Source: a virus (lineage: Duplodnaviria > Heunggongvirae > Uroviricota > Caudoviricetes). From it: a stretch of 64,000 nt of DNA. Numbering within the stretch: position 1 is the first letter of the stretch; every line of letters starts with the position of its first letter. A program made the position numbers and the translations under genes. The notes under the pieces were generated by a model. It searched no databases, was not told where the DNA came from, and saw only the letters and a list, made by a program, of their open reading frames with translations. The stretch spans positions 1-64,000 of IMG/VR virus record IMGVR_UViG_2791355382_000001; one strand, written 5' to 3'. This document shows, piece by piece, positions 5,756-42,065 of the stretch.

Positions 5756-5756
5756 G

Positions 5757-20798: not shown

Positions 20799-21017
20799 TA
20801 TTTGTTGTGGCAAGCTTTATTAATGCAAATAAAAAACACCTATCAACTAGGTGCCTCGTACATGTCGACATTGTACAGAGTAGACAGTGCATTTCTGCCT
20901 GCGATTATATTATTACTATTTTTTCATTCAATTGTCAATAAAAAAGCTTGATCCACAGCTAGATGTAGCTATGGTTTTAGGTTTTAATATTTATATTTAA
21001 ATAAACGAATATATGAC

Positions 21018-22506: not shown

Positions 22507-22510
22507 CCTA

Positions 22511-22571
22511 TAACGATGGCAGGAGTTGAACCTGCATCTGTTACCTTGCCTTACCGTTAGGCTACATCGCT
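22511..22571 (-). ncRNA. tRNA-like minihelix lacking the anticodon arm; overlaps the last 15 nt of the TnpB-like CDS
   Basis: Minus-strand read: acceptor stem AGCGATG/CATCGTT, D-arm GCCT-AACGGTA-AGGC, a 13-nt linker in place of the anticodon stem-loop, a canonical T-arm GCAGG-TTCAACT-CCTGC, discriminator A, and no encoded CCA. Confidence 0.6.
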
Positions 22572-24044
22572 ACTTGTTTCTTCTTTAGGTGTGGTTTTAT
22601 TTTTAGCTCCACACTTAGTACATGTCCACTTTTCATCTTGTGTGATAACCGTACGTTCATGCCCACATTTCTTGCAAGTATCATTCATCTTATCAAGCAA
22701 GTCTAAACCTTCATCTAAGATGTTTTTAGCTGCGTTAATATCTTGATCGTGGTGTGAATTACAGATAGGACAAGTCCACTTACGGTCGCTTAATTTAAGG
22801 TTGTGCTTAATGTAACCACAAGTATGGCAACGCTTTGAAGTTGGTGACCAACGATCAATAAACACAATCTTTTTATCAGCCCAGTCCATCATGTAAGTGA
22901 GCGTATCTCTAATTTCACGAAAGTTTGATCTAGTGATTGCTCTAGCACGGTATTTGTTCTTTTCCATGTCTGAAACAGCTAGGTCTTCCATAACGATTAC
23001 ATCATATTCATTAGCAAGCTTTGAACATGTCTTTTTAATATAGTCTTTCTTTAAGTTTTTAATACGTAAATGTAACTTAGCAATCTTCTTTTTGTTCTTT
23101 TGGTAATTGCTACGTTCAGCCAATGTAGGAACATGCTTTGGAATTAAGGCTTTTTTATTGTCTTCTTCAATGATTGCAACCTCTTTTTTCCATTGTTCAT
23201 ACTTGCGACTACGCTTTACGTTTTCTTTTTCAATCTTTTGTTCTAATTTTCTGATTTTGTCATATGGCAATTGGTATCTAGTACCATCTTGTAAAACAAT
23301 ATGACTGTTACCTGTTACGTTTAAGTCAATACCAGCTGCTAAACCAGTTCTAGGACGTTTTACTGTATGCTCAGCTTGTTCAAACACAAATGATACATAC
23401 CAAGTATCGCTGGATTCATGCTTAATTGTTACTTTATACAAACGTCCGTCACTAGGATAGTGATTAGCCATCTCAATTAAGCCTAACTTAAATCTTTTCA
23501 ATTTACCTACTCTAAGGTGCTTGCCGTCTTCACTGATTTCACAAACATGAGCGCCTGAGGTATAACTACCTTGATTTTCAACGTCCATTGTTGTTTTAAA
23601 CCTAGGAATACCAAAGTGTCTAGGGTTTTTCAAATGGTTGCTCATCGCTGTTTTTAAAGTACGTAAAGTGTAACTATACATGCTAGTATCAGCGTCTTTT
23701 AAAGTCCAACCACTTTCAAACACAGTTTCATCAGCATCGTAAATAGCCTTAGTCGAAAGTCCACGTAAACCTTTGAACAAATCACGTTGCTCTTCCCATG
23801 ACATTCTTTCAATGCGTTTATAAACTTCTTTACTTTGTTTGTTCCTAGGTAAAGCTTGAACTTCATCTAACTCACTAACTGGCTTATAAACTTCAGCTAG
23901 TAATGCGTTCCACATCTTGATATTAGCAAACATATTAAACGTTAAATATGCTTGTTGATCCTTAGTAGGATAAATTCTAATTCTACGACTTTCTAAAACT
24001 TTTTCTTCCATTTTTCTACAACTCCTTTTAAAATACCAATGCAA
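22557..24044 (-). CDS. tnpB: TnpB/Cas12-like RuvC nuclease, enlarged (495 aa) with an extra C-terminal zinc ribbon
   Basis: N-terminal RIRIYPTKDQQAYL (TnpB WED/REC signature). RuvC-I AAGIDLN, RuvC-II VIVMEDLAVSDM, Zn finger CHTCGYIKHNLKLSDRKWTCPIC, RuvC-III HDQDINAAKNI, and an additional CKKCGH...CTKCG ribbon. The REC-like region before RuvC-I is about 245 aa, longer than canonical TnpB. Confidence 0.85.
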   Translation of the reverse strand: MHWYFKRSCRKMEEKVLESRRIRIYPTKDQQAYLTFNMFANIKMWNALLAEVYKPVSELDEVQALPRNKQSKEVYKRIERMSWEEQRDLFKGLRGLSTKAIYDADETVFESGWTLKDADTSMYSYTLRTLKTAMSNHLKNPRHFGIPRFKTTMDVENQGSYTSGAHVCEISEDGKHLRVGKLKRFKLGLIEMANHYPSDGRLYKVTIKHESSDTWYVSFVFEQAEHTVKRPRTGLAAGIDLNVTGNSHIVLQDGTRYQLPYDKIRKLEQKIEKENVKRSRKYEQWKKEVAIIEEDNKKALIPKHVPTLAERSNYQKNKKKIAKLHLRIKNLKKDYIKKTCSKLANEYDVIVMEDLAVSDMEKNKYRARAITRSNFREIRDTLTYMMDWADKKIVFIDRWSPTSKRCHTCGYIKHNLKLSDRKWTCPICNSHHDQDINAAKNILDEGLDLLDKMNDTCKKCGHERTVITQDEKWTCTKCGAKNKTTPKEETSSDVA

Positions 24045-24119
24045 TTTATGTATAATCTTTTGGCTGACTACACTACATTAACCTTCCACAACGGACGTCT
24101 TTATTTGTGCTATCAGCAC

Positions 24120-24215
24120 TTTTTTGGGAACTCTTCAACAAAGAAAAGCAACCTGCAATTCTTTGCTTGCGAAGATGTTTACCAAACTGTGAAGAGCAAG
24201 CACCCTCCTATAACG
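24120..24215 (-). ncRNA. partial copy C' of the conserved element (tRNA-proximal about 95 nt only), immediately upstream of the TnpB-like gene's 5' end
   Basis: Keeps GGGAACTCTTC...GATGTTTACCAAACTGTGAAGAGCAAGCACCCT but lacks the array-proximal repeat-like part. Confidence 0.45.
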
Positions 24216-24272
24216 ATGGTAGGAATCGAACCTACGTCGCCTCGCTTTGCTCTGCCATTGAGCTACATCGTT
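24211..24272 (-). ncRNA. tRNA-like minihelix lacking the anticodon arm (copy C)
   Basis: Minus-strand read: AACGATG-TA-GCTC-AATGGCA-GAGC-A-[13 nt AAGCGAGGCGAC...]-GTAGG-TTCGATT-CCTAC-CATCGTT-A. Canonical D- and T-arms with a 13-nt linker instead of the anticodon arm. Confidence 0.6.
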
Positions 24273-24302
24273 ATTTTGACTTTAATTAAGCCCATGATTT
24301 CA

Positions 24303-24667
24303 GTCTTACACCTATGTCATTTAACCTAGGTTCAGAACTGTGAATTATAATCACTCACATAAACGTGAGTCTTACACCTATGTCAATTCAACTAGGTTCA
24401 GAATCCAAGTCGGCTTGTGAGTGTATGGAAGATAGTCTTACACCTATGTCATTTAAACTAGGTTCAGAACGATCTCCCAAGCGAAGGAATCGAAGGCATG
24501 GTCTTACACCTATGTCATTTAAACTAGGTTCAGAACTATGCTCTAAAGCTCTGAATGTTTTTCTTGGTCTTACACCTATGTCATTTAACTTAGGTTAAGA
24601 ACGTAGGACTGTCATACCTATTCCCAATACGAGTCTTACACCTATGTCATTCAACTAGGTTCAGAAC
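24303..24667. CRISPR. CRISPR-type array 3 (6 repeats, 5 spacers of 30 nt)
   Basis: Repeats at 24303-24338, 24369-24404, 24435-24470, 24501-24536, 24567-24602 and 24633-24667 (the last is a 35-nt variant). All spacers are unique. Confidence 0.9.
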
Positions 24668-24806
24668 CATTGTTTCCTAAACTATATTTAATTGTGACAT
24701 AAGCTTCTTGGGAACTCTTCAGACTTGCGATGTCTTATTGCTAGATTAACTAACTGACAACGTAGAGGTTAAAGATGTTTACCAAGCTGTCGAGAACAAG
24801 CGTCCT
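24668..24806 (-). ncRNA. conserved array-adjacent element, copy D
   Basis: Sequence conservation with the other copies. A tRNA-like minihelix follows at 24811-24858. Confidence 0.6.
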
Positions 24807-24810
24807 CCTA

Positions 24811-25095
24811 TAGGCACTAGTGGAATTGAACCACTATTACAGTAACCATACGTGCCAACCTACAATAAATATAAAGGAGATGCAGGCATAAATTCCTGCG
24901 ATAGATACAATGTACGCAGGGGTTAAGGAGAAACCCCCTATTAGCACTGGTAGAATCGAACTACCACTAAGCAACCATGCGTGCTAACCTTGAGTAAATC
25001 ATTCAGTACAATCACACCGCCGCCACGAACCCTAGATGGCGGCAATAAGCATAGCTAGAATCGAACTAACTTTTATTCCAAAATGCTTAGATTTG
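24811..25095 (-). repeat. cluster of three tRNA-like minihelices (T-arm plus acceptor stem; 24811-24858, 24939-24990, 25045-25088) with GC hairpin GCCGCCACGAACCCTAGATGGCGGC at 25018-25042
   Basis: On the minus strand each reads GGCAC...[about 15 nt]...TGGTAG-TTCGATT-CTACCA...GTGCC, i.e. a T-loop consensus GTTCGATTC closed by a 5-7-bp acceptor-like stem. The 25045-25088 unit plus the GC hairpin is repeated at 33040-33120. Confidence 0.5.
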
Positions 25096-25109
25096 CTAAG
25101 TCATGATAA

Positions 25110-25541
25110 GTCTTACACCTATGCCAATTCAACTAGGTTCAGAACTAGTATATATGCAGATGAGCCGCTAGTACTGTCTTCAACCTATGTCATTTAGCCT
25201 AGGTTCAGAACAGGACTTCACCACCGTCTTCTAACTTTCGCGTCTTATACCTATGTCATTTAACCTAGGTTCAGAACAAAACTTGTTTACGATGCCCTCA
25301 CTACTAAGTCTTGCACCTATGTCATTTAACCTAGGTTCAGAACTATCAGCTCCAGGGAATTCAGCAGAGCCACGTCTTGCACCTATGTCATTTAACCTAG
25401 GTTCAGAACTAAAAACGATGAAAGCGATAGATGATTTCGGTCTTGCACCTATGTCATTTAACCTAGGTTCAGAACATAATATTATTGCCCAAAACGCTGC
25501 GTTCTGTCTTGCACCTATGTCATTTAACCTAGGTTCAGAAC
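25110..25541. CRISPR. CRISPR-type array 4 (7 repeats, 6 spacers of 30 nt)
   Basis: Repeats at 25110-25145, 25176-25211, 25242-25277, 25308-25343, 25374-25409, 25440-25475 and 25506-25541. Spacers are unique. Confidence 0.9.
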
Positions 25542-25690
25542 CGTTATTTTCTAACATATATTTAATTGTGACATAAGTTTCTTGGGAACTCTTCAGACTT
25601 GCATAATCGTAAACAAACTAATGCAATTTGCGATTATACAGAGGCCGAAGATATTAACCAAGCTGTCAAGAACAAGCGTCCTCCAAATAG
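25542..25690 (-). ncRNA. conserved array-adjacent element, copy E
   Basis: Sequence conservation; the central part diverges (CATAATCGTAAACAAACTAATGCAATTTGCGATTATACAGAGG, similar to copy F). Followed by a tRNA-like minihelix at about 25696-25744. Confidence 0.55.
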
Positions 25691-25695
25691 CGATG

Positions 25696-25744
25696 GCAGG
25701 AGTTGCACCTGCATTGATCTACCGTTTGGCATCGCTACACATAA
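25696..25744 (-). ncRNA. tRNA-like minihelix (copy E): acceptor AGCGATG/CATCGCT, a D-loop-like remnant, T-arm GCAGG-TGCAACT-CCTGC
   Basis: Minus-strand reading; no anticodon arm. Confidence 0.5.
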
Positions 25745-26476
25745 AATGTACATAAATGAATAAAGATAAAGTTAAGATTATAAGGCTTGTGCTAATGCTT
25801 ACAGGAACGATAGAGGCTTACATGTAGTTTACTGATGTCCCTGTAGGCTTAACCCTTTGCCTTACGTTTATTATAATACACTATCTCACACTCTAAGTCA
25901 AATGTTTTTGTATACTTTTTTAAAATAAAATTCGAAAAAGTTAAAAAATAAAAAAAGCCACAAGCCTAGGTAACCCTAGATGTGACTTTCTTAACTAGAG
26001 CGAAACAAACATTAAGGAGCCTCAACTGTTTTTCGCTAGTTCTATTTTAACATAAACACTAACGTTTACAATTATCCTAATGTTTGTTTTATCATCAGTT
26101 TCTTTAACCATCTTAAAACGCTTCCTTTAATTGTTTTTCTTTACTTTTGGATCCATGCCATGTATTATTGTATATGAAAAGAGGACAAACAGGTCGCAAC
26201 TGTTTGCCCTCGAGCGTGAATGTTTAAGGCTATTGTGTGTTGGCTAATTATGATTACTTAAAATCATGATTAGCTTTTTTTATTATCCAATACGCAACGG
26301 CAACGTCTATTGTAAATAATTATGCGTAAACCTAGAAAAAGCTTGAATATCATAAAAAAAGGCTATATACTGAAAGTGTGTCGTATCAGTATATAGCCTT
26401 GTTCCTAGCCTATTTTCTAGGAACTTTTTTTTATTTATAACCAAGCATCGCACAAACGAATATCTAGTCCTTCTTC

Positions 26477-26592
26477 CTACTTTTTTTCTTGCATTTTAGC
26501 AACTTTTGCTTCAGCTTCTTCGATGGAATTAGCATTAATAATTACATTTTCGTGGACTTTACCATCTACTATATCTATTTGATACCAAGACA
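26477..26592 (-). CDS. small ORF (38 aa; MSWYQIDIVDGKVHENVIINANSIEEAEAKVAKMQEKK)
   Basis: Has an RBS GGAAGGAG. A truncated paralogue (MGWYQIDVVDGKVQ...) with the same RBS sits at 28283-28345, so the two copies bracket iscB. Confidence 0.35.
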
Positions 26593-26711
26593 TATTTCTT
26601 CACTCCTTCCCAGTCGTGTTCAATAATAATTTGGTGAGAAGTAGGATAGCCTTAGCTTGCTTAAAACAAGCTGAACTCACCACACTTCTTTTTTTATATA
26701 ATATTATTAAT

Positions 26712-28031
26712 CTATCCCATAGCATATTGCTTTTCAGTAATTGCTTGTTTTTGCCAATTATTATGATGCGATAATCTATCTAACTTAGATAAAGCCACTT
26801 TCCTATATCTATCAGATGTTGTTAGATAATTACCAAATATATCTTTAATATAACAAGACGATTGACTAAATCCACTAATATAACCTTTCTTGTTACTATC
26901 CTTGATTCTGACATAATCATTAAGCCAAAAACCTTTGGCATATTTAGTATTTCTAGCGTTTCTTTTACTTGTTATATTAGGTGTCTTACGACCCTTACGT
27001 GCCGTAGCCTCATGTAAGGAACGCTTTTTCTTTCTAAATTGCTTAAACATCATAATGCTAGTTGGTTTTGCTTTGATTTTTTTAATGCCACTAATTGCTA
27101 CAGCGTCATTATAGTGGGACTTGGTTAATTCTAAATCGACTCGCTGTAATGTTGTCCATGCTCCATACTGAAATTTAGCTTGTGGGAAAGAAGTAAATAG
27201 TCTTCTTCTTAGAATGTTCATGAAAGTCGCACCTTTATAAGACTTGTTGACTTTCTTTTTATCCTTACACCACTTAGCTAAGATTCCACTTTGATGGTTT
27301 TTAGTTGTATGACACTTAGAACATACGGTAATTAGATTATCTATGGTATTAGTTCCACCTAAGGAGCGATAGATAATATGGTGGATTTTGAGTTTACCAC
27401 CCTTTTTTTTACATACTTGACAAGTATAGTTATCTCTAGCCAAAACAAATTGTTTAACAGTTTGATAACCGTATAAATCACCTTGCTGATAACCCTCACC
27501 ATTTATTGCTGGATTCTTCATTTTTTGCATATCAAACTTACCAACTTCGATATGTAAATCAGCTTTAGGTAGAACTGATAATAATCTTTTTATCCAGTTG
27601 ATATTATGGTTAACCTTACTTGCCACTGATGGTGGCAACCAGTTATCTTTTTTACTAGCTATACGGTTTAAAAACCTCGCTTTACGATAACGTGTCTTAC
27701 GATTACGTCGACTTCTACGGTATATTCTTCTAGTATCTATCAGTTTTTTAACATCTTGTCTTAACTCTACTTCGCCTTGAAATAAGACTTTATCTTGGCT
27801 TGTAACAGCTAAACCAATATGTCGTTGACCGCTATCAATTCCAATACTTACATCTTGTTTATAGCCAGTTGAACCATATAAGAGCTGAATGGTAAAAGGC
27901 TCTTTTTTTAAGACTTTTGCTTTACCATCTCTCAACAAAATTCTAGCTTTTCTAGGTTTACATGGCATTAGTGCTTTACCATGTTTATTAATGACAAAAA
28001 CTCGGTTTTGCATAGTTTGTACTCCTTCCAT
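26712..28031 (-). CDS. iscB: IscB (OMEGA RNA-guided nuclease; RuvC split by an HNH insert, N-terminal PLMP domain)
   Basis: PLMP motif KALMPCKPRKARILLRDGKAKV. RuvC-I SIGIDSGQRHIGLAV. HNH HHIIYRSLGGTNTIDNLITVCSKCH with flanking CQVC and CSKCH. RuvC-III KSHYNDAVAISGI. Confidence 0.85.
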   Translation of the reverse strand: MEGVQTMQNRVFVINKHGKALMPCKPRKARILLRDGKAKVLKKEPFTIQLLYGSTGYKQDVSIGIDSGQRHIGLAVTSQDKVLFQGEVELRQDVKKLIDTRRIYRRSRRNRKTRYRKARFLNRIASKKDNWLPPSVASKVNHNINWIKRLLSVLPKADLHIEVGKFDMQKMKNPAINGEGYQQGDLYGYQTVKQFVLARDNYTCQVCKKKGGKLKIHHIIYRSLGGTNTIDNLITVCSKCHTTKNHQSGILAKWCKDKKKVNKSYKGATFMNILRRRLFTSFPQAKFQYGAWTTLQRVDLELTKSHYNDAVAISGIKKIKAKPTSIMMFKQFRKKKRSLHEATARKGRKTPNITSKRNARNTKYAKGFWLNDYVRIKDSNKKGYISGFSQSSCYIKDIFGNYLTTSDRYRKVALSKLDRLSHHNNWQKQAITEKQYAMG

Positions 28032-28330
28032 TTTTTATAAGGTATCTATGACCTTATCACGTATTTATCAGAGTTAATAAATACATGTTCTTACCCTTCG
28101 ACAATGTTATCTCAGCTTATAAACAAGGTTGACTAGCACATTAACCTTATGCTTGTTTACAGAGCCTTCATAGAGCTAGAAACTAGGGTATCATTTCTAG
28201 GTATGATCACTGAAATAACGTAGTTACTTAAAACTTAGTCTAGACAACAAGGCTTGTAGTTTATTGCTACAAGTCACCTACTTTAGTAGGTGGTTACTGT
28301 TGACTGCACTTTTCCGTCTACCACGTCGAT
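28032..28330 (-). ncRNA. candidate IscB omegaRNA region (upstream of iscB, same strand)
   Basis: The position matches known IscB omegaRNAs (5' of iscB). Contains stable hairpins (CTAGAAACTAGGGTATCATTTCTAG; TAGGTGGTTACTGTTGACTGCACTTTTCCGTCTACCAC). Called from position and structure only. Confidence 0.3.
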
Positions 28331-29105
28331 TTGGTACCAACCCATATTTCTTCACTCCTTCCAAGCCGTTTTCAAAGTATTTAAAGCGTTCGTAATAGCT
28401 TAAGTATCGGCTCTTTTTAACTTCTAAATTTCTAGGGTTAACTTTTAGTTTAGCTACCCAATCACCCTTACGTTGATAGTTACTACAGATGTGTATGTTT
28501 TCTTGTGGATCATCATCTTTAACGTAAGGCATACCTACATGTTCAAGCGTAATGTCTTTTAAGCCAAACTTAGTAGCGTAGAATCCATGTTCAATTCGGC
28601 CACGATAAGTGCCTACCATCGCAGTAAAATGAATGGTATCACCAACTGAGATGTAAATAGTTTGATCATCGTTGCCTTCAAAGTTGGTAATATCAGAAAA
28701 TCTAATCCATAAATGAGTGGCTAGTTTTCTGAACATATCAACTCTAGTTGCACCTTGCGTGTACTTGTATTCACTGAAATACGATTGTTCAACCAACAGT
28801 TGGCTATTCCATGGATCTTCAGGATCAATTTTAATGTCAGACACGATTGCAAATACGTCTAATTTAGTGTTGACGTAATCTTGTAAAACAAAGCGACTAG
28901 AGCTTTTTTCAGGCTTTGTTTGTAGTAAGAGTGCAGCTGTAGCTATTCTAGCTTGATTAGCATTTTGCTTGACTTCCTTGTAACCACTTAGGATAAAACC
29001 AAACGGTGAATGGTGCTTATCAGCGGTTGGAATTTTAGGAACAGCTTGCTTTTGCTCTTGTTTTTTATCTTTCTTTAAGCGTTTAATATACTTCTTTTTG
29101 TCCAT
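28278..29105 (-). CDS. hypothetical protein (275 aa), downstream partner of the Panacea-domain gene; putative toxin
   Basis: ORF 22 nt downstream of the Panacea-domain gene in the same operon. No motif recognised. Confidence 0.4.
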   Translation of the reverse strand: MDKKKYIKRLKKDKKQEQKQAVPKIPTADKHHSPFGFILSGYKEVKQNANQARIATAALLLQTKPEKSSSRFVLQDYVNTKLDVFAIVSDIKIDPEDPWNSQLLVEQSYFSEYKYTQGATRVDMFRKLATHLWIRFSDITNFEGNDDQTIYISVGDTIHFTAMVGTYRGRIEHGFYATKFGLKDITLEHVGMPYVKDDDPQENIHICSNYQRKGDWVAKLKVNPRNLEVKKSRYLSYYERFKYFENGLEGVKKYGLVPNRRGRRKSAVNSNHLLK

Positions 29106-29127
29106 TAATCACCACTCCTTTTTTTAG

Positions 29128-29679
29128 TTAGTTTTCACTTGAATCAACCGTTAGTAGCCACTTTTGATTATCGGCAAAGCATTGCTCAATTTCAGAGTTT
29201 GTGTATTCTGCGTATTCGTATGTTCTTCTATGCCCTAATATTTCACTAAGTTCGTTTATAACAGGGTCTTTGTGAGTCCTATGGTTTATGATAACTTTGC
29301 CTAACTGCCAACTCGGCTTAGAAATCAAGGCTTGAGTGACCTTTTCTAATTCTTTTACTTGAGCTTCAGGCAAGCCTACTTTTGCTTGATAAGTCTTGAT
29401 TAGAGAAAAATGTGACAATTCAAGCACTATTTTAGGACTTGTGATGTTCCCTGGCCCATAAAATTTAAACTCCCTAATAATTTCTTCGTTGAGTACACCG
29501 TGGGGATAACTCTTAAACTCACAATCCATTAACGGTTGTTTGTGCTTATCTAAATAATATCCTTGCAAGAAAAACAGGACTTTACAAAGCTTGAGATAGC
29601 TTAGGTCTTGCTTTTGTTTTAACGCTAATTCGATAGCAAAGTTAGCTACAGCCATCGTAGTTTGAGTCTTTATTTCCAT
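29128..29679 (-). CDS. Panacea-domain (DUF4065) protein, putative antitoxin
   Basis: LSYLKLCKVLFFLQGYYLDKHKQPLMDCEFKSYPHGVLNEEI fits the Panacea/SocA-like pattern (KLQKLLYFAQ...GxPLF...WxxGPV). Confidence 0.55.
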   Translation of the reverse strand: MEIKTQTTMAVANFAIELALKQKQDLSYLKLCKVLFFLQGYYLDKHKQPLMDCEFKSYPHGVLNEEIIREFKFYGPGNITSPKIVLELSHFSLIKTYQAKVGLPEAQVKELEKVTQALISKPSWQLGKVIINHRTHKDPVINELSEILGHRRTYEYAEYTNSEIEQCFADNQKWLLTVDSSEN

Positions 29680-29687
29680 AAAACCAC

Positions 29688-29882
29688 CTACTTTGCTAAA
29701 TAGTCTTTTACGCTGTCACTAGCAGCTTGGTCTAACTTACGTCTGTGATATAGTCGATTACCCATGCACCAAGGACAAGTTCCATGGTTACGGCAAGTTT
29801 GGTCTACAGCTTTTGAGCCGTAATAAGGTTTGCGATGTTCTTTTCCATGTTTGATTGCTTTTTCTAGTCCCATATAAATCAC
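29688..29882 (-). CDS. small CxxC protein (64 aa)
   Basis: CRNHGTCPWC; in the operon just upstream of the Panacea-domain gene. Confidence 0.35.
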   Translation of the reverse strand: MIYMGLEKAIKHGKEHRKPYYGSKAVDQTCRNHGTCPWCMGNRLYHRRKLDQAASDSVKDYLAK

Positions 29883-29902
29883 CTCTTTTTGGCAACACTA
29901 AC

Positions 29903-30970
29903 CTAAGCCACAGCGTATTGTGGTTTAGTTCCAAAACTAGTTAAGCTATTGACTTCAATCAGTTCATCTTGAGCTAATTCAAAGTTGTCAGACAAGTATG
30001 TCTTAATGCTATTAGCGATGTTGTTACGAATGTAAGAATACATAAAGCTTTCAGTGTTTCTAACCTTTTCTTGACCTTTGTAAATAATTTCAGTCATTCT
30101 AATTAATGCAGACTCTAAACCTTTGATTAACAAACTGTTAGTTTCAAATCTTGTAGCTTCTTGACTTGCAGGATTGTATAACCAATTAGAACTAGATAAT
30201 AACTTATTAGTCACTTGGCTTTTAGCTTTAAAGATAGTGTTAACAATAAACTTAGCTTGCTTGTAATCACCTTGAGCTAAAACTTCAACTCTACCCCATA
30301 CAGCAGGAGTTAAAACGTTAGATATTCTGTTTTTCAAAGCTAACATAGCTGTTTTATTAACGTTGTAGTCTACCTTTGAGTCGATAGAAGAAGGAGATGG
30401 TTGATTACTAATTTTTTGTAAGTTAGGATTTGATTCATATGTTTCATTTGTATTATTATATATATCTCTCTTAGAGTCTTTCTCACTTATAGGATTATTT
30501 TTCATGCCTGTAGCTGAATTATCTTCACTCACGTACTGGCCAATTATTCTAACAAGGTCTTCATTAACGTTATTACTATCGTTGATACTATTACTTTTAT
30601 CAGTACTTTTAACCTTTTTTTGAACGCTTGCTTGTGGTTCATGCACATAGATTTTGTAATGCTTTAAGCCAAGTCTTTTTACACTGATTAAGCCATGGTT
30701 AACTAACTCTTTACGTAACTTAGATACAGTTCTGCTAGTTGTACGTACTTTTTCAGCTGCTTCTTCATTAGTGAAGATAATGTATGGATTACCTTTTTCA
30801 TCAACAAAATCTTTATTTCCATTTTTAGCGCTATTAATAGAGCAAGTTAAACGTCTTGCATAAAGTGAATATAACAAGATTGATAGACCGCTTAAGTCTT
30901 TGTATTTTTCATCTTCAATTAATGTATCTGATACTTTTGTAAATGTTCCTTCAACGTTAGTTTTAGTCAT
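29903..30970 (-). CDS. RepA_N-family replication initiator
   Basis: N-terminal LSILLYSLYARRLTCSINSAKNGNKDFVDEKGNPYIIFTNEEAAEKVRTTSRTVSKLRKELVNHGLI matches the firmicute plasmid RepA_N winged-helix pattern (LSAKNGW.DE.G.VYIIFT.EE...). Confidence 0.7.
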   Translation of the reverse strand: MTKTNVEGTFTKVSDTLIEDEKYKDLSGLSILLYSLYARRLTCSINSAKNGNKDFVDEKGNPYIIFTNEEAAEKVRTTSRTVSKLRKELVNHGLISVKRLGLKHYKIYVHEPQASVQKKVKSTDKSNSINDSNNVNEDLVRIIGQYVSEDNSATGMKNNPISEKDSKRDIYNNTNETYESNPNLQKISNQPSPSSIDSKVDYNVNKTAMLALKNRISNVLTPAVWGRVEVLAQGDYKQAKFIVNTIFKAKSQVTNKLLSSSNWLYNPASQEATRFETNSLLIKGLESALIRMTEIIYKGQEKVRNTESFMYSYIRNNIANSIKTYLSDNFELAQDELIEVNSLTSFGTKPQYAVA

Positions 30971-30985
30971 ATTAAAACTTCCTTT

Positions 30986-31258
30986 CTAGTATTCGTCATC
31001 GTCTTCTTCATCATCTTCATCAAACAAGTCATGAATGCCTAAATTATCAAGTAACAAACTTGCGATTAAGATTTTTACTTCTTCGTGTAATGGCTCAAAC
31101 AAAGATGTGATAACCCTAATAGTTGTTTCAGGGCTTAGTTGACCTTCCATCATAGTTCTTTCGCCTTTTCTAAGTACCATTAAAGTTTCTTCGTAGCCTG
31201 CGTCTTGGAGTAATTTAGTAGTTTCATCAGCAATTTTTTTAATTTCGCTTGAACTCAT
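30986..31258 (-). CDS. hypothetical acidic protein (90 aa)
   Basis: ORF with a poly-D/E C-terminus. Confidence 0.35.
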   Translation of the reverse strand: MSSSEIKKIADETTKLLQDAGYEETLMVLRKGERTMMEGQLSPETTIRVITSLFEPLHEEVKILIASLLLDNLGIHDLFDEDDEEDDDEY

Positions 31259-31274
31259 GTATAAACCTTCCTTC

Positions 31275-32030
31275 TTAATCTATGTTTTCTTGGTAAGAAT
31301 CGTATTTCCAAATGTAAGTCCAACGATCGTCTACCCATTCTCGTTCACGTAGAATCGTACCTTGGTTGTCTAGCATTGTGTACTTCCAATGTAAACCATC
31401 GTTTTCTCTCCAAACAAACGCTAACCAGATAATGTCTTGCTTGTTGGACATACGTAAGATATAAGTTTCAAACGTGTTCATTGGTGTACGGTTTAGCCAA
31501 CTGTCAAAATCAATAAGTAAACCCTTGTGCCTTTCAATGCCTGTAATCTGCGATGAAATTAAGTGTGTTCTATCAACGTGATTAGGGCTTAGGCTACCTG
31601 GAATCTTAGAGTTAGGATTTTCTGAATTTAAGTCAGCTACAATGTAGGACTCATGCTTAACTCTTTGGCTTTTAGTAGCGCTTTTTTCAATTGCAGGAAA
31701 ATGACCCCTAGCATTTTTACCATTCCTTTTTCGCCAAGCTTCTCTAAACTTTTCTTCACTGTCGATACCGTTAGCAATCAAGTCTAAATAATCTCGGTTA
31801 TAAGCAAAGCCTGTGTTTTGTTTTACGTACACACAAGCTACGTGATGCGTTGGTGTATGCTGCCACAAAACCGTGTTAGGATCTACTTGATTGATGTATT
31901 TTAAAGCCTTAGATAAGCTAAAAATATTGGCACTGGTTACTTCATATACGTCAGTGCCACCGTTATTAACATTGTTTAAAATTGCGTTGAATTTTTTGAT
32001 TGCATAATCTCGAGTAATGATTTTGCTCAC
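31275..32030 (-). CDS. DNA/RNA non-specific endonuclease (NucA/EndA-like, DRGH-type)
   Basis: HVDRTHLISSQITG resembles the DRGH active-site motif. 251 aa. Located immediately downstream (minus strand) of array 5 and element F. Confidence 0.5.
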   Translation of the reverse strand: MSKIITRDYAIKKFNAILNNVNNGGTDVYEVTSANIFSLSKALKYINQVDPNTVLWQHTPTHHVACVYVKQNTGFAYNRDYLDLIANGIDSEEKFREAWRKRNGKNARGHFPAIEKSATKSQRVKHESYIVADLNSENPNSKIPGSLSPNHVDRTHLISSQITGIERHKGLLIDFDSWLNRTPMNTFETYILRMSNKQDIIWLAFVWRENDGLHWKYTMLDNQGTILREREWVDDRWTYIWKYDSYQENID

Positions 32031-32058
32031 TTCCTTATCTAAGCTATCTATAATTACA

Positions 32059-32191
32059 GTCTAAGGCTTATGCCAGTTTAATTCTCTTTCAATCCTAGTC
32101 TTAGCACTTATGCCGTTCTAACTAGATTCAGAACTTTTTGAAAATAGATATTTTAGTCTTCAACCTACGTCATTTCAGCTAGGCTCAGAAC
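32059..32191. CRISPR. CRISPR-type array 5 (degenerate: about 3 decayed repeats, 1 short spacer)
   Basis: Repeat-like copies at 32059-32094, 32098-32134 and 32157-32191 with strong divergence. It abuts element F at 32192. Confidence 0.55.
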
Positions 32192-32318
32192 CTATATTAA
32201 ATTGTGACATAAGCTTCCTGGGAACTCTTTAGACTTACATAATTGCTAACTAACTAATGCAAGTTGCGATTATGCAGAGGTTAGAGATGTTTACCAAGCT
32301 GTCAAGAACAAGCGTCCT
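32192..32318 (-). ncRNA. conserved array-adjacent element, copy F (array-proximal part shortened)
   Basis: Sequence conservation; ends ...CCAAGCTGTCAAGAACAAGCGTCCT. Confidence 0.55.
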
Positions 32319-32322
32319 TCAA

Positions 32323-32383
32323 TAGCGATGACAGGAGTCGAACCTGTATCTCATGCCTTGCTCTACCGTTAAGCTACATCGCT
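32323..32383 (-). ncRNA. tRNA-like minihelix lacking the anticodon arm (copy F)
   Basis: Minus-strand read: AGCGATG-TA-GCTT-AACGGTA-GAGC-[14 nt]-ACAGG-TTCGACT-CCTGT-CATCGCT-A. Confidence 0.6.
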
Positions 32384-32394
32384 ACACACACACT

Positions 32395-33125
32395 TTTTAT
32401 TAAGGGAGGAAAAAGTGTTGTACATATACATTCCGATTAGTTGGTTCGCCCTTGCGTTGGCAAAGGCTATTGGCACTGGTAGAATCGAACTACCACAAAA
32501 GCAACCATGCGTGCCAACCTTAAAAAAATAAAAAAGGAAAGATATTTTTGTTGCCCCACTAGGGTTATTTTAGCCCTTGTTTTACCAAGGAAATTAGCAC
32601 CAGTGGAGTCGAACCACTGTAAAAGCAACCGTACGTGCCAACCAAATCATAAATATTAAATCAAGGAGTTATGTTAGTTAGGATAATTATTACTATCCTA
32701 AAGAGAAAAAGTTTTGAGTTTGTAGCTTAATGCTACAATTGGCACTAACAGAATCGAACTGTTACAAGACAACCATGCGTGCCAGCCGATAAGTAACTTT
32801 TAAAAAAGGAGTAATATACAACCATTTTAGGGTTTATTCAAGCCCTATTGGTGTTAGCGGAATCGAACCACTATACAGCAACCATGCACACCAACCAATA
32901 TCTTAAGAGTTTATATAATAAGGCATTTGAGCCTAAAATAAGAGGAAATAGTTTTAGGGTTGTTATACCCTATTGGTAGCCAAGGAATCGAACCTTGATA
33001 CAACCACTCTACCAACTTATAAGTAATAGTTTTAGTGCAAGTGCGTTGCCACTACGAAGCTTAGGTAGCGGCAATAAGCATAGCTAGAATCGAACTAGCT
33101 TTTATTCCAAAATGCTTGTTAGATA
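32395..33125 (-). repeat. tandem array of six degenerate 100-130-bp units, each with a tRNA-like T-arm/acceptor minihelix (GAATCGAAC on plus strand = GTTCGATTC T-loop on minus strand)
   Basis: Minihelices end at about 32517, 32645, 32770, 32895, 33018 and 33118. Each is preceded on the plus strand by an AT-rich stretch with AAGGAG-like motifs and a TAGGGTT...AACCCTA hairpin. Confidence 0.55.
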
Positions 33126-33138
33126 AACCTGTGATAAT

Positions 33139-33374
33139 GTCTTATCTTATGCTAGTTTCAATTAGGTTCAGAACCTTTACAGTTAATAATGAATACAGTA
33201 GTAGGTGTCTTCAATCTATGTCAATTCAACTAGGTTCAGAACATGTGATGGATATGTTAATCAATGGTTGTCGTCTTGCATCTATACCATGTCAGATAGG
33301 TTCAGAACTATGGTCAAGATTATATAAAATCTAGGCATGTCTTCAACCTACGTCAATTCAATTAGGATCAGAAC
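33139..33374. CRISPR. CRISPR-type array 6 (4 repeats with drift, 3 spacers of 30-32 nt)
   Basis: Repeats at 33139-33174, 33207-33242, 33273-33308 and 33339-33374. Spacers are unique. Confidence 0.75.
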
Positions 33375-33500
33375 CTATATTTAATTGTGACATAAGCTTC
33401 TTGGGAACTTTCCATGCTTGCAATGTTTTACCGTTAGATTAACCAACGTTACACCGTAGAGGCTAGAAATATTTACCAAGTTGTCAAGAACAAGCGTCCT
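33375..33500 (-). ncRNA. conserved array-adjacent element, copy G
   Basis: Sequence conservation. A tRNA-like minihelix follows at 33505-33558. Confidence 0.55.
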
Positions 33501-33504
33501 CCAA

Positions 33505-34040
33505 TTAGCACTAACGGAATTGAACCGTTATTACAGCAACCATGCGTGCCAACTCAATAATTACTATAGAAAGGTTTTACTATGGCAAAACACTAGCATT
33601 ACCATCTTTTAGGGTTTATCCAACCCTATTGGCACTAGCGGAGCCGAACCGCTATGAAAGTAACCGTACGTGCCAGCCGTAAGTCGAATCGAATATATAA
33701 AGGAGTAAAGAGATGCGAGTGTTCGCAATCTTTTAGGGTCTGTTTCAACCCTATTGGCAGCCAAGGACTTGAACCTTGATGCAACCATTCTGCCAACCAA
33801 TTTAATTAATTCAATAAAATAAAGGAGAATAGGGTCTATGGCAACCCTATTGGCACTAACGGAATCGAACCGTTATTATAGCAACCATGCGTGCCACACC
33901 CAGTTAGTAAGTAAAGTAACATATAAAACGAAAGGAGCGATGCAAACAATGTTTGCAACCTTGAGCCAAGCTTTAGCTTAGCTCTATTAGCAGTTAGAGA
34001 ATCGAACCCTAACAAAGCAACCATGCCTGCTATAAGATGG
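33505..34040 (-). repeat. second tandem array of five tRNA-like minihelix units (100-130-bp period)
   Basis: GAATTGAACC / GAGCCGAACC / GACTTGAACC / GAATCGAACC / GAATCGAACC cores, each closed by a GGCAC...GTGCC-type stem and preceded by an AACCCTATTGGC hairpin. The ORF-track calls here (33609..33800, 33836..34075) are translation artefacts of the repeat. Confidence 0.55.
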
Positions 34041-35102
34041 CTAGAATGGTAAGTCATCGTTACTGATAAAATCATCTTTTGGTTTATTGTCAGTATAGTT
34101 ATCTAAAAAGCTTGAATAATCTTCTTTTTTTGTTTCATTTTCTGTAGCTGTAGAATTAGTATCAACTACTGGTTGATCGTTTAGAACTGATACAATCTTG
34201 CTCCAGTCTTCTGGTTGACCTAAGAATTTAGTTAATGTTTTGTTATCAACTACTCCTAAATTGCCTAATCTTTTAATTGTATTTGCTTTTACCACATTAT
34301 GAGCAAGTAGTTTAGCTAACATTTGATCGTTTTCTTCAATTTCATTTTTATAATCAGCAATCAAATCAAGAATTTTCTTAGCTTTAACATTCATTCTCTC
34401 TTTTTTTTCTTCTGATAATTCTTTCAATGAAAATTTAGGAATAAAAGATCCACCGTTGGAATTAGGTGCAAAGTATTGTTCATCACTGTTTGAAGTAAAT
34501 TCTTCAACCTTTAATAACTTACCTTTAATAAGTTCAGGTGCATTTCTAAAATCAAGATGTAATTGATTTAATAATCCAAAATACTTTTTGGGTGTAAGTT
34601 CTAAATAAGCTAAAACAATATTATTATTGACTTTAGAAAAACTGGCTAAGTCTTCGTCTGTATTAATTAGTTTGTTATCTTTTTTAGTTAACAAACCAAA
34701 AATTCTACGTCGTTCTTTAACCTCTTCATTAGGGAAATTTTCCTTAAAGTTGTTACTACCACCTGGGTAAATACCTAAACTAGAACTTGTGCGTCCTTGA
34801 GCAGTATCTTTGTAGCGGTATAAATCATATACACCTAGCAAAGATGGATTTGAAGAAATTCCTTTATCGCTTTTAGCAACTTTAGTCATAAATAATGGAA
34901 TAAATTCATACGATTTAGCTTGAAGCATTTGTCCACGTTCTTTGTTATTTTCAGGAAATTGGATAGTTAACATACCTGATTGCCCATTATGGCGAAGATT
35001 TAAAATATCTACACCATTAGGTCTTAAAGGCACTCCTGTTCGTGTTCCTTCATCTACATTTACCATTAAAGAGTCTAGTGTGTTCATAATAAAGTCCTCC
35101 AA
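34041..35102 (-). CDS. hypothetical protein (353 aa)
   Basis: Long ORF with an RBS. A roughly 450-bp AT-rich regulatory region lies upstream. No motif recognised. Confidence 0.45.
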   Translation of the reverse strand: MEDFIMNTLDSLMVNVDEGTRTGVPLRPNGVDILNLRHNGQSGMLTIQFPENNKERGQMLQAKSYEFIPLFMTKVAKSDKGISSNPSLLGVYDLYRYKDTAQGRTSSSLGIYPGGSNNFKENFPNEEVKERRRIFGLLTKKDNKLINTDEDLASFSKVNNNIVLAYLELTPKKYFGLLNQLHLDFRNAPELIKGKLLKVEEFTSNSDEQYFAPNSNGGSFIPKFSLKELSEEKKERMNVKAKKILDLIADYKNEIEENDQMLAKLLAHNVVKANTIKRLGNLGVVDNKTLTKFLGQPEDWSKIVSVLNDQPVVDTNSTATENETKKEDYSSFLDNYTDNKPKDDFISNDDLPF

Positions 35103-35560: not shown

Positions 35561-36667
35561 ATGACTCAAAAGAAAAATCAACCAACAAACTTTTTCGCAT
35601 TAGATATTGGCAATAAACAAAGTAAACTTAAGAATAGTAAGGACAGTTATGTATTTCCTTCATCTTTAATTAACCAAAGAGATGTTGCATCAGTTTTCTC
35701 AACATCTAAGCCAGACGGTGTAATCGACTTGTCTTTAAATGGTGATACACAAAAGTATTACTGGGGAGCAGGCATCTTGAACTACTCTCAAGACAAAATT
35801 CAAGACTCACTTGGTTTTGAAGGTAGATACCAACGCAACATCTACCGTTTATTGAACGAGTTTGCTTTAGCATTTCTAGCTAAGGATTATATTGAAAGTG
35901 AACTAACAGCTGTATCAGTTATCGCTGGTGTTCCTACTGGTGATTACAACAAAGAAACTGTAGATGAAATCAAGAGTATTTTCTTAGAAAAAGACGGACA
36001 AGACTTTAAGCCACGTAGACACTTAGTTACAGTTGATGGTAAAGAAGTAATTGTACGTGTAGTTCAAGTCTTGGTAGTGCCACAGCCAATTGGAACATTC
36101 TATGACGTTGTGTTAAACGATGAATTAAAACCTAATAGTAACAACGTAGCCTTAAACCGTGTTGGTATCATTGATGTAGGCGGTGGAACATTGTTATTAG
36201 ACCAAATAATCAACGCTAACTTAGACCGTCAAGCACGTTTACAACTACCAACTGGAGCAGATACTTTATACAACTCAGTTAAATCTTTAATCGAGCTTGA
36301 ATTAGGCATCAGCCCAGACGTGCATAAAATTGAAGCTATGGTAAGAGATGGCTTGGAACGTGGCTTTGACAATGCTAAGTTTGTCTATAAGCAATCAGCT
36401 AATAACATCTTTGATATTACCGAGTTAGTTTTAGGTGAAATTGACCACTATACTTCAAACGTAATTGATAAGGTTTATGGAGCGTTTAAAAACATCGCTG
36501 AAATTGACACTTTGTTAGTTACTGGTGGCACATCTAACATCTTAAATCACGATATGTTTGAAAAAGCTTTTGCTAAACAAGCTGCAGTAGTGTTTGTTGA
36601 CAACGCTGAATACGCTAATGTTAACGGTTTTTTGAAGTATGACAAATACCTTAATAGTAATATGTAG
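35561..36667 (+). CDS. parM: actin-like plasmid segregation ATPase (ParM/Alp family)
   Basis: Actin-fold phosphate-1 ALDIGNKQSKL and phosphate-2 GIIDVGGGTLLLDQI; adenosine motif LLVTGGTSN. Confidence 0.7.
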   Translation: MTQKKNQPTNFFALDIGNKQSKLKNSKDSYVFPSSLINQRDVASVFSTSKPDGVIDLSLNGDTQKYYWGAGILNYSQDKIQDSLGFEGRYQRNIYRLLNEFALAFLAKDYIESELTAVSVIAGVPTGDYNKETVDEIKSIFLEKDGQDFKPRRHLVTVDGKEVIVRVVQVLVVPQPIGTFYDVVLNDELKPNSNNVALNRVGIIDVGGGTLLLDQIINANLDRQARLQLPTGADTLYNSVKSLIELELGISPDVHKIEAMVRDGLERGFDNAKFVYKQSANNIFDITELVLGEIDHYTSNVIDKVYGAFKNIAEIDTLLVTGGTSNILNHDMFEKAFAKQAAVVFVDNAEYANVNGFLKYDKYLNSNM

Positions 36668-40712: not shown

Positions 40713-42065
40713 GTGAAAACGATGGTCAGGAAACAAAAATCTAAGAAAGCTACCATACAAGCTTTTAGAGATATAAGAGATAAAAAGACAGAAATTCAGT
40801 ATGAATACTTGGTAGAAAAACATGTTATTAGAGCTAATGACAGTCGTTATTTAACCTTAGCTAAGTACGCTCACTTGGCTAATAATATCTATAACCAAGC
40901 TTTATATCGCTTTAGGCAATCTTTATTTAAAGGTAAATGGTTGAGTTATGGAGCATTAGATAGGTCATTTAAACAGTCATATCAACAAAAAGATTGTATG
41001 CTTTATCGTTCTATGAAAAGCGTTCATTTAGCTCAACAAATTTTAAAGTTAGTCATGCAAAATATGACTGTTTGGAATAAAGCTGTTAAAGCTTATCAGA
41101 AGAATCCTGGTAAATTTACTGGTAGACCTAAGCTGCCAAAATATAAAAACAAAGGCGGTAAAAGTATCGTTATCGTAGATAATCAAACCGCTAAATTACG
41201 TCCAAATGGCATTGTTGAAATACCTGTAATGAATAATCTAAAAATTAAGTTACAACATCAAGATACAACTAAAATTCAACAAGTTAGGATTGTTCCTAAA
41301 AATAATCAGTTTGTAGTTGAAATTGTTTATAAAACTAACAAGGTTATTGCTTATAAAAAAGATAACGGACGTTATCTTACAATAGATCCAGGACTTGATA
41401 ATGCTTTTACTTTGGCATCTAATGTTAAAGAGTTTCAACCTGTAATTGTTAATGGACGACCTTTAAAGGCAATTAACCAATACTATAACAAACAAAGAGC
41501 TAAATTAACTAAGTTATACGACTTTAATAAACAAAGTCGTAATACTAAACGTTTAAATAACTTAGATTTTTATCGTAATAAAAAAGTTTTAGGATTTGCT
41601 CATGAGGCAAGTAAACGCATTGTTGAAATAGCGTTAAACCATGAGTTAAATACGATTGTTATTGGTAAAAATAAAGGTCAAAAACACTTTATTAATCTAG
41701 GTAAAATTAACAATCAGAATTTTATTGGAATCCCACATCAAAAAATGGTAGAGATGATTGAATATAAAGCTAACTTAGCTGGAATTGTTGTTATTCAAGC
41801 CAATGAGGCTTATACCAGTCAAACATCATTTTTAGATAACGAAGAACCAATTAATCAAAATGGAGATAAAGCTCGTAAACGTAAAGGACTAAGTCCTACT
41901 AAAAGACGTATAAAACGTGGATTATTCAGGTCGAATAAAGGCTTTTTGATTAATGCTGATGTTAATGGAGCTTTACAGATATTAAGAAAAGTAGTACCGA
42001 ACGCTTTTGCTGACGGTATAGATGGAATCGGATTAGTTCCAGTTAAGCTAAACTTAAATTTCTAA
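40713..42065 (+). CDS. tnpB: TnpB (IS605/IS1341 OrfB family) with a degenerate zinc finger
   Basis: RuvC-II EAYTSQTS and RuvC-III NADVNGALQILRK. 450 aa. The C-terminal region lacks the usual CxxC pair. Confidence 0.75.
   Translation: MKTMVRKQKSKKATIQAFRDIRDKKTEIQYEYLVEKHVIRANDSRYLTLAKYAHLANNIYNQALYRFRQSLFKGKWLSYGALDRSFKQSYQQKDCMLYRSMKSVHLAQQILKLVMQNMTVWNKAVKAYQKNPGKFTGRPKLPKYKNKGGKSIVIVDNQTAKLRPNGIVEIPVMNNLKIKLQHQDTTKIQQVRIVPKNNQFVVEIVYKTNKVIAYKKDNGRYLTIDPGLDNAFTLASNVKEFQPVIVNGRPLKAINQYYNKQRAKLTKLYDFNKQSRNTKRLNNLDFYRNKKVLGFAHEASKRIVEIALNHELNTIVIGKNKGQKHFINLGKINNQNFIGIPHQKMVEMIEYKANLAGIVVIQANEAYTSQTSFLDNEEPINQNGDKARKRKGLSPTKRRIKRGLFRSNKGFLINADVNGALQILRKVVPNAFADGIDGIGLVPVKLNLNF

Follow-up and report, generated by a model that had tools for sequence, protein, structure and literature searches.

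Introduction

Plant mitochondria contain so-called t-elements, tRNA-like structures consisting of an acceptor and a T arm, which are found at the borders of transcripts, where cleavage by RNase P and RNase Z sets the 5' and 3' ends of mRNAs (PMC1920247). Here we describe elements of related anatomy, referred to as tRNA top-half mimics or simply mimics, in a DNA stretch of 64,000 nucleotides (nt), the IMG/VR record IMGVR_UViG_2791355382_000001, positions 1 to 64,000. This whole stretch is called the window in the following; its gene content identifies it as a plasmid of Ligilactobacillus salivarius type. The mimics share with t-elements and with mitochondrial tRNA punctuation a non-decoding minimal anatomy and the same proposed logic. 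However, t-elements are organellar, occur singly and have no link to guide RNAs, whereas the mimics are found on a plasmid, with a Firmicute as the probable host, in tandem runs of 5-6. Moreover, cleavage has been demonstrated for t-elements, whereas for the mimics we infer it.

The TMERs of murine gammaherpesvirus 68 are clustered, non-decoding tRNA-likes with hairpins, from which RNase Z releases the hairpin RNA. They are RNA polymerase III units with internal promoters, they keep the cloverleaf, and their hairpins are Dicer substrates. The mimics are also clustered and non-decoding, each with a hairpin immediately 3' of it, but these predicted hairpins measure 5-10 base pairs (bp), and TMERs belong to a eukaryotic setting. 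Another tRNA-like occurring in nature is mascRNA (10.64898/2026.01.19.700226). Formed at the 3' end of MALAT1, it resembles the mimics as a small tRNA-like whose anticodon arm is reduced. Its cleavage by RNase P creates the 3' end of a long non-coding RNA, and the tRNA-like is subsequently cut by RNase Z and CCA-tailed. Unlike the mimics, it is a eukaryotic single copy that retains a short anticodon stem.

In engineered tRNA-guide RNA arrays, and with the t-element CRISPR RNAs of Haloferax, flanking tRNAs or tRNA-likes let RNase P and RNase Z free the guides (PMC4326828). The order found in the window, i.e. tRNA-like, scaffold plus array, tRNA-like, would be a natural counterpart of these arrays, which are man-made and have no equivalent of tandem runs that are almost without cargo. 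In the literature searched, tRNA-type processing signals flanking guide RNAs were described in engineered systems only, and neither a natural case nor the present arrays were found there. In phages and prophages, tRNA islands are known to have the RNAs ROOL and GOLLD in their vicinity (PMC12286853). Relatives of the present locus are such islands, but the plasmids keep only anticodon-less forms, multiplied into arrays. Tandem RNA repeats that are processed into units and lie beside a plasmid protein gene are also a feature of type III toxin-antitoxin systems. There, ToxI-type repeats are 34-48 nt long and near-identical, are cut by their own toxin and are not tRNA-like, and near the mimics, in contrast, no ToxN-type protein was found. 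What notably sets the mimics apart is thus the combination of a bacterial plasmid setting, tandem amplification and a link to guide RNAs.

Copies and fold of the mimics

An initial annotation of the window had reported two tandem arrays of six and five degenerate units, and a shorter cluster with the same parts. A covariance model was seeded with nine clean copies from the window (MAFFT misaligned two units with short linkers). It gave 14 matches in the window, all on the minus strand, with E values from 6e-23 to 1.5e-4 and in just such three clusters: five copies at 33503-34034, six at 32468-33120 and three at 24809-25091. The copies measure about 50 nt and are spaced at 96-145 bp. No comparable match was seen elsewhere in the window, where the next-best hit (32321-32386, E ~0.07) is a larger tRNA-like described below. 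Tandem Repeats Finder did not detect the arrays, because the linkers between the copies are too diverged.

In the upstream array, mimic 1 (33985-34034; cmsearch 47.2 bits, E 1.4e-12) is the most divergent copy. It is followed by mimic 2 (33848-33898, 71.6 bits), mimic 3 (33752-33798; 35.6 bits, E 8e-9), which represents a short-linker subtype, mimic 4 (33627-33678, 73.0 bits) and mimic 5 (33503-33554, 73.5 bits), which abuts the scaffold of a CRISPR-like array unit named G. The downstream array starts with a variant mimic (33073-33120; 24.3 bits, E 3.8e-5) and a copy of the short-linker subtype (32971-33017, 36.3 bits), continues with copies at 32846-32896 (70.1 bits), 32737-32787 (68.0 bits) and 32592-32643 (72.7 bits), and ends at 32468-32519 (79.2 bits, E 6e-23). 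The third cluster consists of a second variant mimic (25044-25091, 22.4 bits), a copy at 24939-24989 (73.5 bits) and one at 24809-24860 (73.7 bits), which abuts the scaffold of unit D. The variant mimic at 33073-33120 has an AAGCAU/AUGCUU acceptor and an unstructured GG linker, and a GC hairpin (33045-33072) follows it. The duplication of a GC hairpin plus minihelix, noticed earlier at 25018-25088 and 33040-33120, is therefore borne out as a variant mimic with its hairpin.

Three helices make up the mimic, namely an acceptor stem of 7 bp, a hairpin of 3 bp (GCA-UGGU-UGC) and a T stem of 6 bp, which encloses the loop UUCGAUU. The T loop that had been noticed on the minus strand inside a closing stem is found again as a GTTCGATTC loop inside this 6-bp stem, the plus-strand consensus being the reverse complement. 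The acceptor stem (6-7 bp) stacks on the T stem to give 12-13 bp, the T loop follows UUCRAUU, and there is no anticodon arm. The mimic therefore cannot decode and has, as t-elements do, acceptor and T arms without decoding capacity. The stacked acceptor/T arm, a UUCRAnn T loop and its G18 and G19 elbow partners are present as in a tRNA. A complete cloverleaf is not: ARAGORN found no tRNA in the window and no functional tRNA in the window or in related plasmids, and the Rfam tRNA model (RF00005) matched none of the 14 units, even at E up to 10. Because a 3-bp remnant of the D arm with an invariant GGU is retained, the mimic imitates the whole tRNA elbow, or top half, beyond the acceptor and T arms. 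The earlier term minihelix thus describes the acceptor/T arm correctly and is too small a term for the whole element.

Covariation was calculated at two levels. In the nine window copies, 97.9% of the stem cells are paired and 10 of the 16 pairs have changed on both sides. When the partners were slid by 1-3 columns, pairing dropped to 21-56%, and none of 500 shuffles reached the observed values. The pooled set comprised 62 copies from all sources, 50 of them distinct. Among the distinct copies, 97.2% of the cells are paired, with 130 double-changed cells and up to five pair types per position; sliding gave 22-55%, and again 0/500 shuffles attained the observed values. Among the unpaired bases, GGU in the D-like loop and U54, U55 and C56 in the T loop are without variation, while A58 is kept in 48/50 copies; the G53-C61 pair of the T stem is invariant as well. 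In a tRNA, these are the bases that form the elbow. The fold is conserved and under selection on the minus strand. The family of small RNAs listed among the initial candidates is consequently upheld in the sense of a conserved, strand-specific fold that points to an RNA.

The same stems could be read as structures of single-stranded DNA, such as lagging-strand origins or the ends of IS200/IS605-type elements. Several TnpB genes lie on the plasmid, those elements use DNA hairpins, and the fold is strand-specific. However, the conserved loop is a tRNA T loop with a matching GG, and the 50 distinct copies contain 44 G-U pairs, which on the plus strand would appear as A-C and in DNA as G-T mismatches. 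Furthermore, the same slot can hold elements that score as Rfam tRNA, and no TnpA was seen among the genes scanned. Altogether we consider such DNA structures very improbable.

An even smaller chance is given to the proposal that the units encode plus-strand micro-open reading frames or a repeated LALTESNRYYSNHACQP-like peptide, translated from AAGGAG motifs. One plus-strand frame is indeed open across seven units, and AAGGAG-like motifs lie upstream of units. Against this, start codon, spacing and frame are inconsistent, the open reading frames (ORFs) range from 0 to 47 amino acids (aa), and several motifs have no start codon. In addition, the residue changes between copies are radical (Y/R/H/C, T/V/A) and track the covariation of the stems. 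The peptide was rejected on its inconsistent starts and frames and on these radical changes.

It had also been put forward that repeated integration at tRNA 3' ends left the units behind as tandem attL/attR scars, and the T-arm/acceptor sequence does resemble the part of tRNA genes that integrases use. In this case, however, both acceptor strands are present and covary, so that the units are not tRNA 3' halves. They are found fused to scaffolds and genes, the consensus pattern has no copy in 185,579 GTDB representative genomes, and a Pfam scan of nine genes between 26.7 and 38.6 kb detected no integrase. This proposal was therefore rejected and keeps practically no probability.

Three further element types were ruled out: CRISPR repeats by the 96-145 bp unit spacing, the mutually related linkers and the tRNA-like fold; elements of the miniature inverted-repeat transposable or repetitive extragenic palindromic kind by the location of all 14 copies in three one-strand clusters, by the absence of the consensus pattern from the GTDB representative genomes and by the restriction of copies to a single plasmid lineage; and a type III toxin-antitoxin RNA by the long, degenerate repeats and the lack of a ToxN-type family in the neighbouring genes.

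Location at RNA borders

Mimics always lie on the strand of the flanking genes and at RNA borders (as drawn from sequence features), which is also where t-elements are located. Seven array units are found at 20830-34040 on the minus strand. Each consists of a scaffold of ~130 nt and a CRISPR-like array with 36-nt repeats and 30-nt spacers, and these arrays are features separate from the mimics. The scaffolds begin with (U)GGAGGACGCUUG and carry an anti-repeat-like segment near the 3' end. Amid the seven units there is a single TnpB/Cas12f-like gene (22557-24044, minus strand, 495 aa); cas1 and cas2 were not seen among the genes scanned.

On the 5' side, mimic 1 starts 6 nt past the stop codon of a 353-aa ORF (34041-35102, minus strand), which adjoins the upstream array. 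At the other end of this array, mimic 5 is fused to the tracr-like scaffold of unit G (33375-33502, minus strand, with its anti-repeat-like part at the 3' end) at the junction …GUGCUAAUU/GGAGGACGCUUG…, and the CRISPR-like repeats of array G (33139-33374, minus strand) follow directly 3' of this scaffold. Similarly, the mimic at 24809-24860 is fused to the scaffold of unit D.

The 3' ends of the arrays have no terminal repeat. The variant mimics lie 18 nt beyond the last repeat of arrays G and E, so that the last spacers there (33121-33138 and 25092-25109, minus strand, both 18 nt) abut them. The last spacer of array D (24273-24302, minus strand, 30 nt) abuts a larger tRNA-like and that of array B (22099-22132, minus strand, 34 nt) abuts ROOL. 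As the last spacer runs into a mimic, a tRNA-like or ROOL, its 3' end would be fixed by a cut at that place.

The larger tRNA-likes all lie on the minus strand and have 7-8 nt in place of the 17-nt anticodon arm. The one at 32323-32383 (Rfam tRNA, 50.7 bits; 7 nt) has a D arm and is fused to the scaffold of unit F (32192-32322, minus strand). A second one (24211-24272, 49.5 bits) lies upstream of a scaffold variant and the TnpB-like gene. The third (22511-22571, 48 bits) overlaps the stop codon of the 495-aa TnpB-like ORF and is fused to the scaffold of unit B, and there is a degenerate copy near 25700. A ROOL RNA (21490-22098, minus strand, 225 bits) is located between two array units, with its 3' end ~10 nt from a scaffold start. 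The slot before a scaffold can thus be occupied interchangeably by a small mimic, a larger anticodon-less tRNA-like or ROOL. In the related loci L003 and L005, a mimic plus hairpin is found upstream of the TnpB ribosome-binding site.

Separately, related plasmids have two additional array units that are absent from the window. Among the spacers of the window, one of the two at 25212-25241 and 25476-25505 matches a non-coding stretch by parM on the L. salivarius megaplasmid NZ_CP117984.1 in 30/30 positions, and the other matches many Lactiplantibacillus plasmids in 28/30; cultured phages gave 0 spacer matches. These matches suggest plasmid-against-plasmid targeting.

Linker RNAs

The upstream array contains four linkers (33899-33984, 33799-33847, 33679-33751 and 33555-33626, minus strand), which were characterized by predicted folds and k-mer enrichment. 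They have a 5' hairpin and then an AU-rich single strand with CUCCUUU-like motifs. The six linkers of the downstream array (within 32387-33072, minus strand), characterized by folds, have a 5'-terminal hairpin, at times a second one, and then a pyrimidine- or AU-rich tail. Linkers measure 41-95 nt, and in the predicted folds a helix begins 0-2 nt past the mimic junction in each following linker or scaffold. A TAGGGTT-loop-AACCCTA hairpin had been ascribed to every unit. It follows 6 of 11 units (7 with a TAGGGCT variant), and the rest have other hairpins at this place. Between plasmids, the linker hairpins are kept by compensatory changes or by wholesale replacement of the stem.

CUCCUUU, whose plus-strand counterpart is AAAGGAG, agrees fully in sequence with the 16S rRNA 3' tail. 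Of 19 non-redundant linkers, 10-13 contain the pentamers CTCCT, TCCTT and CCTTT, where 1-2 would be expected; the linkers are paralogues, however, so that the motif counts are not independent. For CTCCT, the minus-strand form of the AAGGAG-like motifs reported earlier, the count is 10/19 against 0.9, and these motifs are thus enriched. The motif is predicted to be single-stranded and lies 17-40 nt upstream of the next mimic (linkers within 32387-33984 and 24861-25043). In the phage locus L013 it recurs ~21 nt upstream of a mimic.

These features could mean that the linkers themselves are the functional products, i.e. small RNAs with a 5' hairpin cap and a CUCCUUU seed that pair with Shine-Dalgarno sequences or mimic the anti-Shine-Dalgarno. 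The mimics would then merely excise them, as in the tRNA-microRNA units of the herpesvirus. The enrichment of unpaired pentamers, their recurrence in L013 and the retained hairpins argue for it. On the other hand, the variant units and several other linkers have no CUCCUUU motif, blastn-short found no specific antisense target in the window above chance, and a generic anti-Shine-Dalgarno RNA has no obvious selective logic. We therefore rate such a primary role of the linkers as quite unlikely.

As an observation apart, one of the two array units that related plasmids have in addition to those of the window contains a conserved linker of 178-179 nt between two mimics (L001 12116-12293, L002 10992-11170, L008 5030-5208), which may be a distinct small RNA.

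Proposed processing by RNase P and RNase Z

The 3' junction of the mimic, compared in 62 distinct contexts, reads A-A-U-W-G, with U in 62/62 and the final G in 58/62, and CCA is never encoded at the mimic 3' end. RNase Z cuts CCA-less precursors directly past the discriminator, where cytidines inhibit it, and a Streptococcus example leaves a U at the 5' end of the trailer (PMC7479834, PMC8549757). According to PMC7479834, which cites the Bacillus subtilis co-crystal, the contacts of RNase Z are limited to the acceptor stem and the T arm. For RNase P, the elbow is the recognised feature, from which the enzyme gauges the distance to the cleavage site (PMC4919913). An A-A-U-W-G junction without CCA is compatible with the published rules for RNase Z.

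Taking these observations together, we propose that the mimics derive from tRNAs and serve as punctuation marks at which RNase P and RNase Z cut, and we give this explanation a probability of roughly 0.55. The processing sites for these two enzymes that were among the initial candidates fit fold, placement and junction best; this part stands, while cleavage as such is deduced from anatomy. In detail, the mimics would be embedded in long minus-strand transcripts. The first would contain the 353-aa gene, five marks, scaffold plus array G, six marks, a tRNA-like, scaffold plus array F, and the 251-aa gene. The second would run from ~25.9 to 20.8 kb and comprise ROOL, five arrays and the TnpB-like gene. 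Each mimic would be cut on its 5' side by RNase P of the host and, after the discriminator A, by RNase Z. Products of these cuts would be mRNAs, guide precursors of scaffold plus array with exact 5' and 3' ends, ROOL, and short linkers. The hairpin 0-2 nt past the junction would cap the new 5' end against 5'-exonuclease. In Bacillus-type bacteria, a hairpin at the extreme 5' end shields RNAs from RNase J1. The tandem runs would be strings of marks whose only cargo is a hairpin-capped RNA of 41-95 nt.

Co-transcription is suggested by two features: no strong terminators were found inside the mimic arrays, and promoter-like sites lie upstream of 25.9 kb and of the 353-aa gene. The promoter scan showed no excess over shuffles and no consistent promoter per unit. 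The possibility that each unit is a gene of its own was dropped on this result. In strain UCC118, the ROOL promoter maps 225-450 nt upstream, so ROOL is processed from a longer RNA (PMC5643018).

Several points weigh against punctuation. Some linkers contain weak terminator-like hairpins, so that some units could be separate transcripts. The outermost acceptor pair is missing in 10/47 copies and the coaxial stack can be read as 13 bp instead of the canonical 12; the 13-bp stack and the variable outermost pair make the exact cleavage sites uncertain. A cut by RNase P would leave the 353-aa mRNA ending a few nt past its stop codon and with no protective 3' hairpin. Gene conversion between mimic copies could maintain some of them without selection on each. 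Finally, punctuation alone does not account for five to six tandem marks with a tiny cargo, nor for the CUCCUUU enrichment.

Tandem dosage is better accounted for if the mimics, once released and CCA-tailed, titrate proteins with affinity for the acceptor/T-arm half of tRNAs as decoys or sponges, where tandem copies would raise the dose. Targets could be toxins or defence enzymes by which tRNA 3' ends are modified or cut, the CCA-adding enzyme or EF-Tu. All 50 distinct copies keep the fold and the elbow bases, as if each mattered. When plasmids are compared, the linkers often show no difference, but the mimic cores are up to 20% divergent, by paired changes or inter-copy exchange; the cores thus diverge or swap faster than the linkers. 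The plasmid also bears genes of toxin-antitoxin type, including a Panacea domain (29128-29679). However, the acceptor sequence varies, so that no single tRNA identity is mimicked, and a pure decoy does not need to be placed at RNA borders. No partner protein for the mimics was found among the neighbouring proteins either: the 251-, 275- and 353-aa neighbours gave 0 matches to families or defence models in Pfam, PHROG, NCBIfam and PADLOC and 0 PDB sequence matches, and a Foldseek search with the model of the 251-aa protein found no PDB match. A decoy as the main function therefore appears unlikely.

A further and tentative step beyond punctuation, less probable than punctuation itself, combines these elements. 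As a natural form of the engineered tRNA-guide RNA polycistron, the TnpB/Cas12-like system of plasmids and phages might hand the formation of all guide ends to host tRNA-processing enzymes, by means of tRNAs reduced to the half that RNase P and RNase Z recognise, while the tandem runs mass-produce trans-acting, CCA-tailed top halves and/or hairpin-capped anti-Shine-Dalgarno RNAs. These products would be decoys or regulators in plasmid-against-plasmid conflict.

Relatives and origin

Besides the GTDB pattern search mentioned above, a protein-based search of the GTDB representative genomes gave 0 matches. The consensus pattern was found in one 180-kb IMG/VR contig, the sole contig of the same lineage there, and in five metagenome contigs. 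Locus L007 of the metagenome pattern scan was rejected as a chance match. The other contigs carry ROOL, HEARO and the same tRNA-likes and are therefore assigned to the same plasmid lineage. Among the cultured phages of INPHARED there were 0 DNA matches, and only TnpBs of ~29% identity or less.

The TnpB-like family is tight (47-95% identity) and sharply apart from ordinary TnpBs (36% or less). It is also small, occurring only in this plasmid lineage and in large metagenomic phages. The more distant members of the family are encoded by metagenomic phages of 95-124 kb, within true tRNA islands. The order in such an island is tRNA-Arg, ROOL, scaffold, small array, TnpB, a tRNA 7 nt past the stop codon, and more tRNAs. 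These phages also have T-arm elements other than tRNAs, which lie on the coding strand. Phage L012 has pure 12-bp minihelices near 719 and 8825, its elements lying between genes, and near 2023 an anticodon-less tRNA-like followed by a hairpin. In phage L013, a mimic plus hairpin (5733-5787) is located upstream of pnuC. The most plausible origin of the plasmid elements is a phage tRNA island of this kind, in which decoding was lost and the top half was kept. Near the tRNA/ROOL/TnpB island, the phages also encode a fused kinase-phosphatase-RNA ligase (AAA_33, Metallophos, RNA_lig_T4_1; L012 6505-8640, L013 from 15343, L015 from 15165), an enzyme of tRNA-repair type.

Descent from such an island could in principle have left only decaying remnants without function, and it is true that relatives stand in true tRNA islands and that ARAGORN found no functional tRNA in the window or in related plasmids. 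However, decay is not expected to produce a precise loss of the anticodon arm with 97% pairing, compensatory changes and an invariant elbow in 50 copies. One contig carries the 353-aa gene at only 73% DNA identity (53% protein), beside a five-mimic array plus scaffold at 97% and parM at 96%. An array 97% identical next to a diverged gene also speaks against decay, and it indicates that the array travels as a conserved block between diverged backbones. Altogether, decay is distinctly improbable.

It was also observed that TnpB-type insertion elements lie inside mimic arrays of related plasmids, where they split or replace units (L001 12814-14070 and ~15336-15394; L018 from ~9260). The arrays thus tolerate or attract such insertions.

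Plasmid and neighbouring genes

The plasmid nature of the window is indicated by a RepA_N initiator (29903-30970, minus strand) and an Alp7A/ParM-type partition protein (35561-36667); ParA and FtsK/VirB4-like transfer proteins are encoded as well. The nearest public record is the L. salivarius plasmid NZ_CP123973.1, with ~92% identity over half of 20.9-36 kb.

Regarding the genes next to the arrays, the 353-aa gene has only four homologues among 5.8 billion proteins. Its protein sequence is hypervariable (53-74% identity) between flanks that both keep 96-97% DNA identity. The 251-aa protein (31275-32030, minus strand) is conserved in lactobacilli and has an invariant DRTHLISSQxTGIE motif. Its predicted model is confident, with a predicted local distance difference test (pLDDT) value of 87.5, and its homologue in Limosilactobacillus reuteri stands in an unrelated gene context. 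The Panacea (SocA) antitoxin-domain protein (29128-29679, minus strand) adjoins the unannotated 275-aa protein. These two, spanning 28278-29679, may form a toxin-antitoxin pair.

An IscB gene (RRXRR plus HNH, 439 aa) with an adjoining HEARO/omega RNA (118 bits) is found at 26712-28304 on the minus strand and represents a second, independent RNA-guided nuclease on the plasmid. On the plus strand, the window contains a 450-aa TnpB-type gene (40713-42065) and a 388-aa ORF (62331-63497), the latter followed by a Transposase-1 RNA motif (63533-63591, plus strand, 70.5 bits). A 1579-aa ORF (48262-53001, plus strand) has tandem repeats of 78 bp (2.2 copies) and 114 bp (5.5 copies) at 52062-52834 and is probably a repetitive surface or transfer protein.

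Conclusions

In conclusion, cleavage of the mimics as proposed would be, in the literature searched, the first natural excision of CRISPR-like or TnpB guides by RNase P and RNase Z, a tRNA-guide trick that genome engineers have invented independently. The consensus of ~50 nt would then represent a compact, naturally optimised processing module. Tandem amplification and CUCCUUU tails hint at a possible extra function in trans. For the phages and plasmids concerned, punctuation by mimics would mean that a phage tRNA island can evolve into a scaffold for RNA processing alone when decoding has become dispensable, and that ROOL, guide RNAs and mRNAs can share a single transcript.

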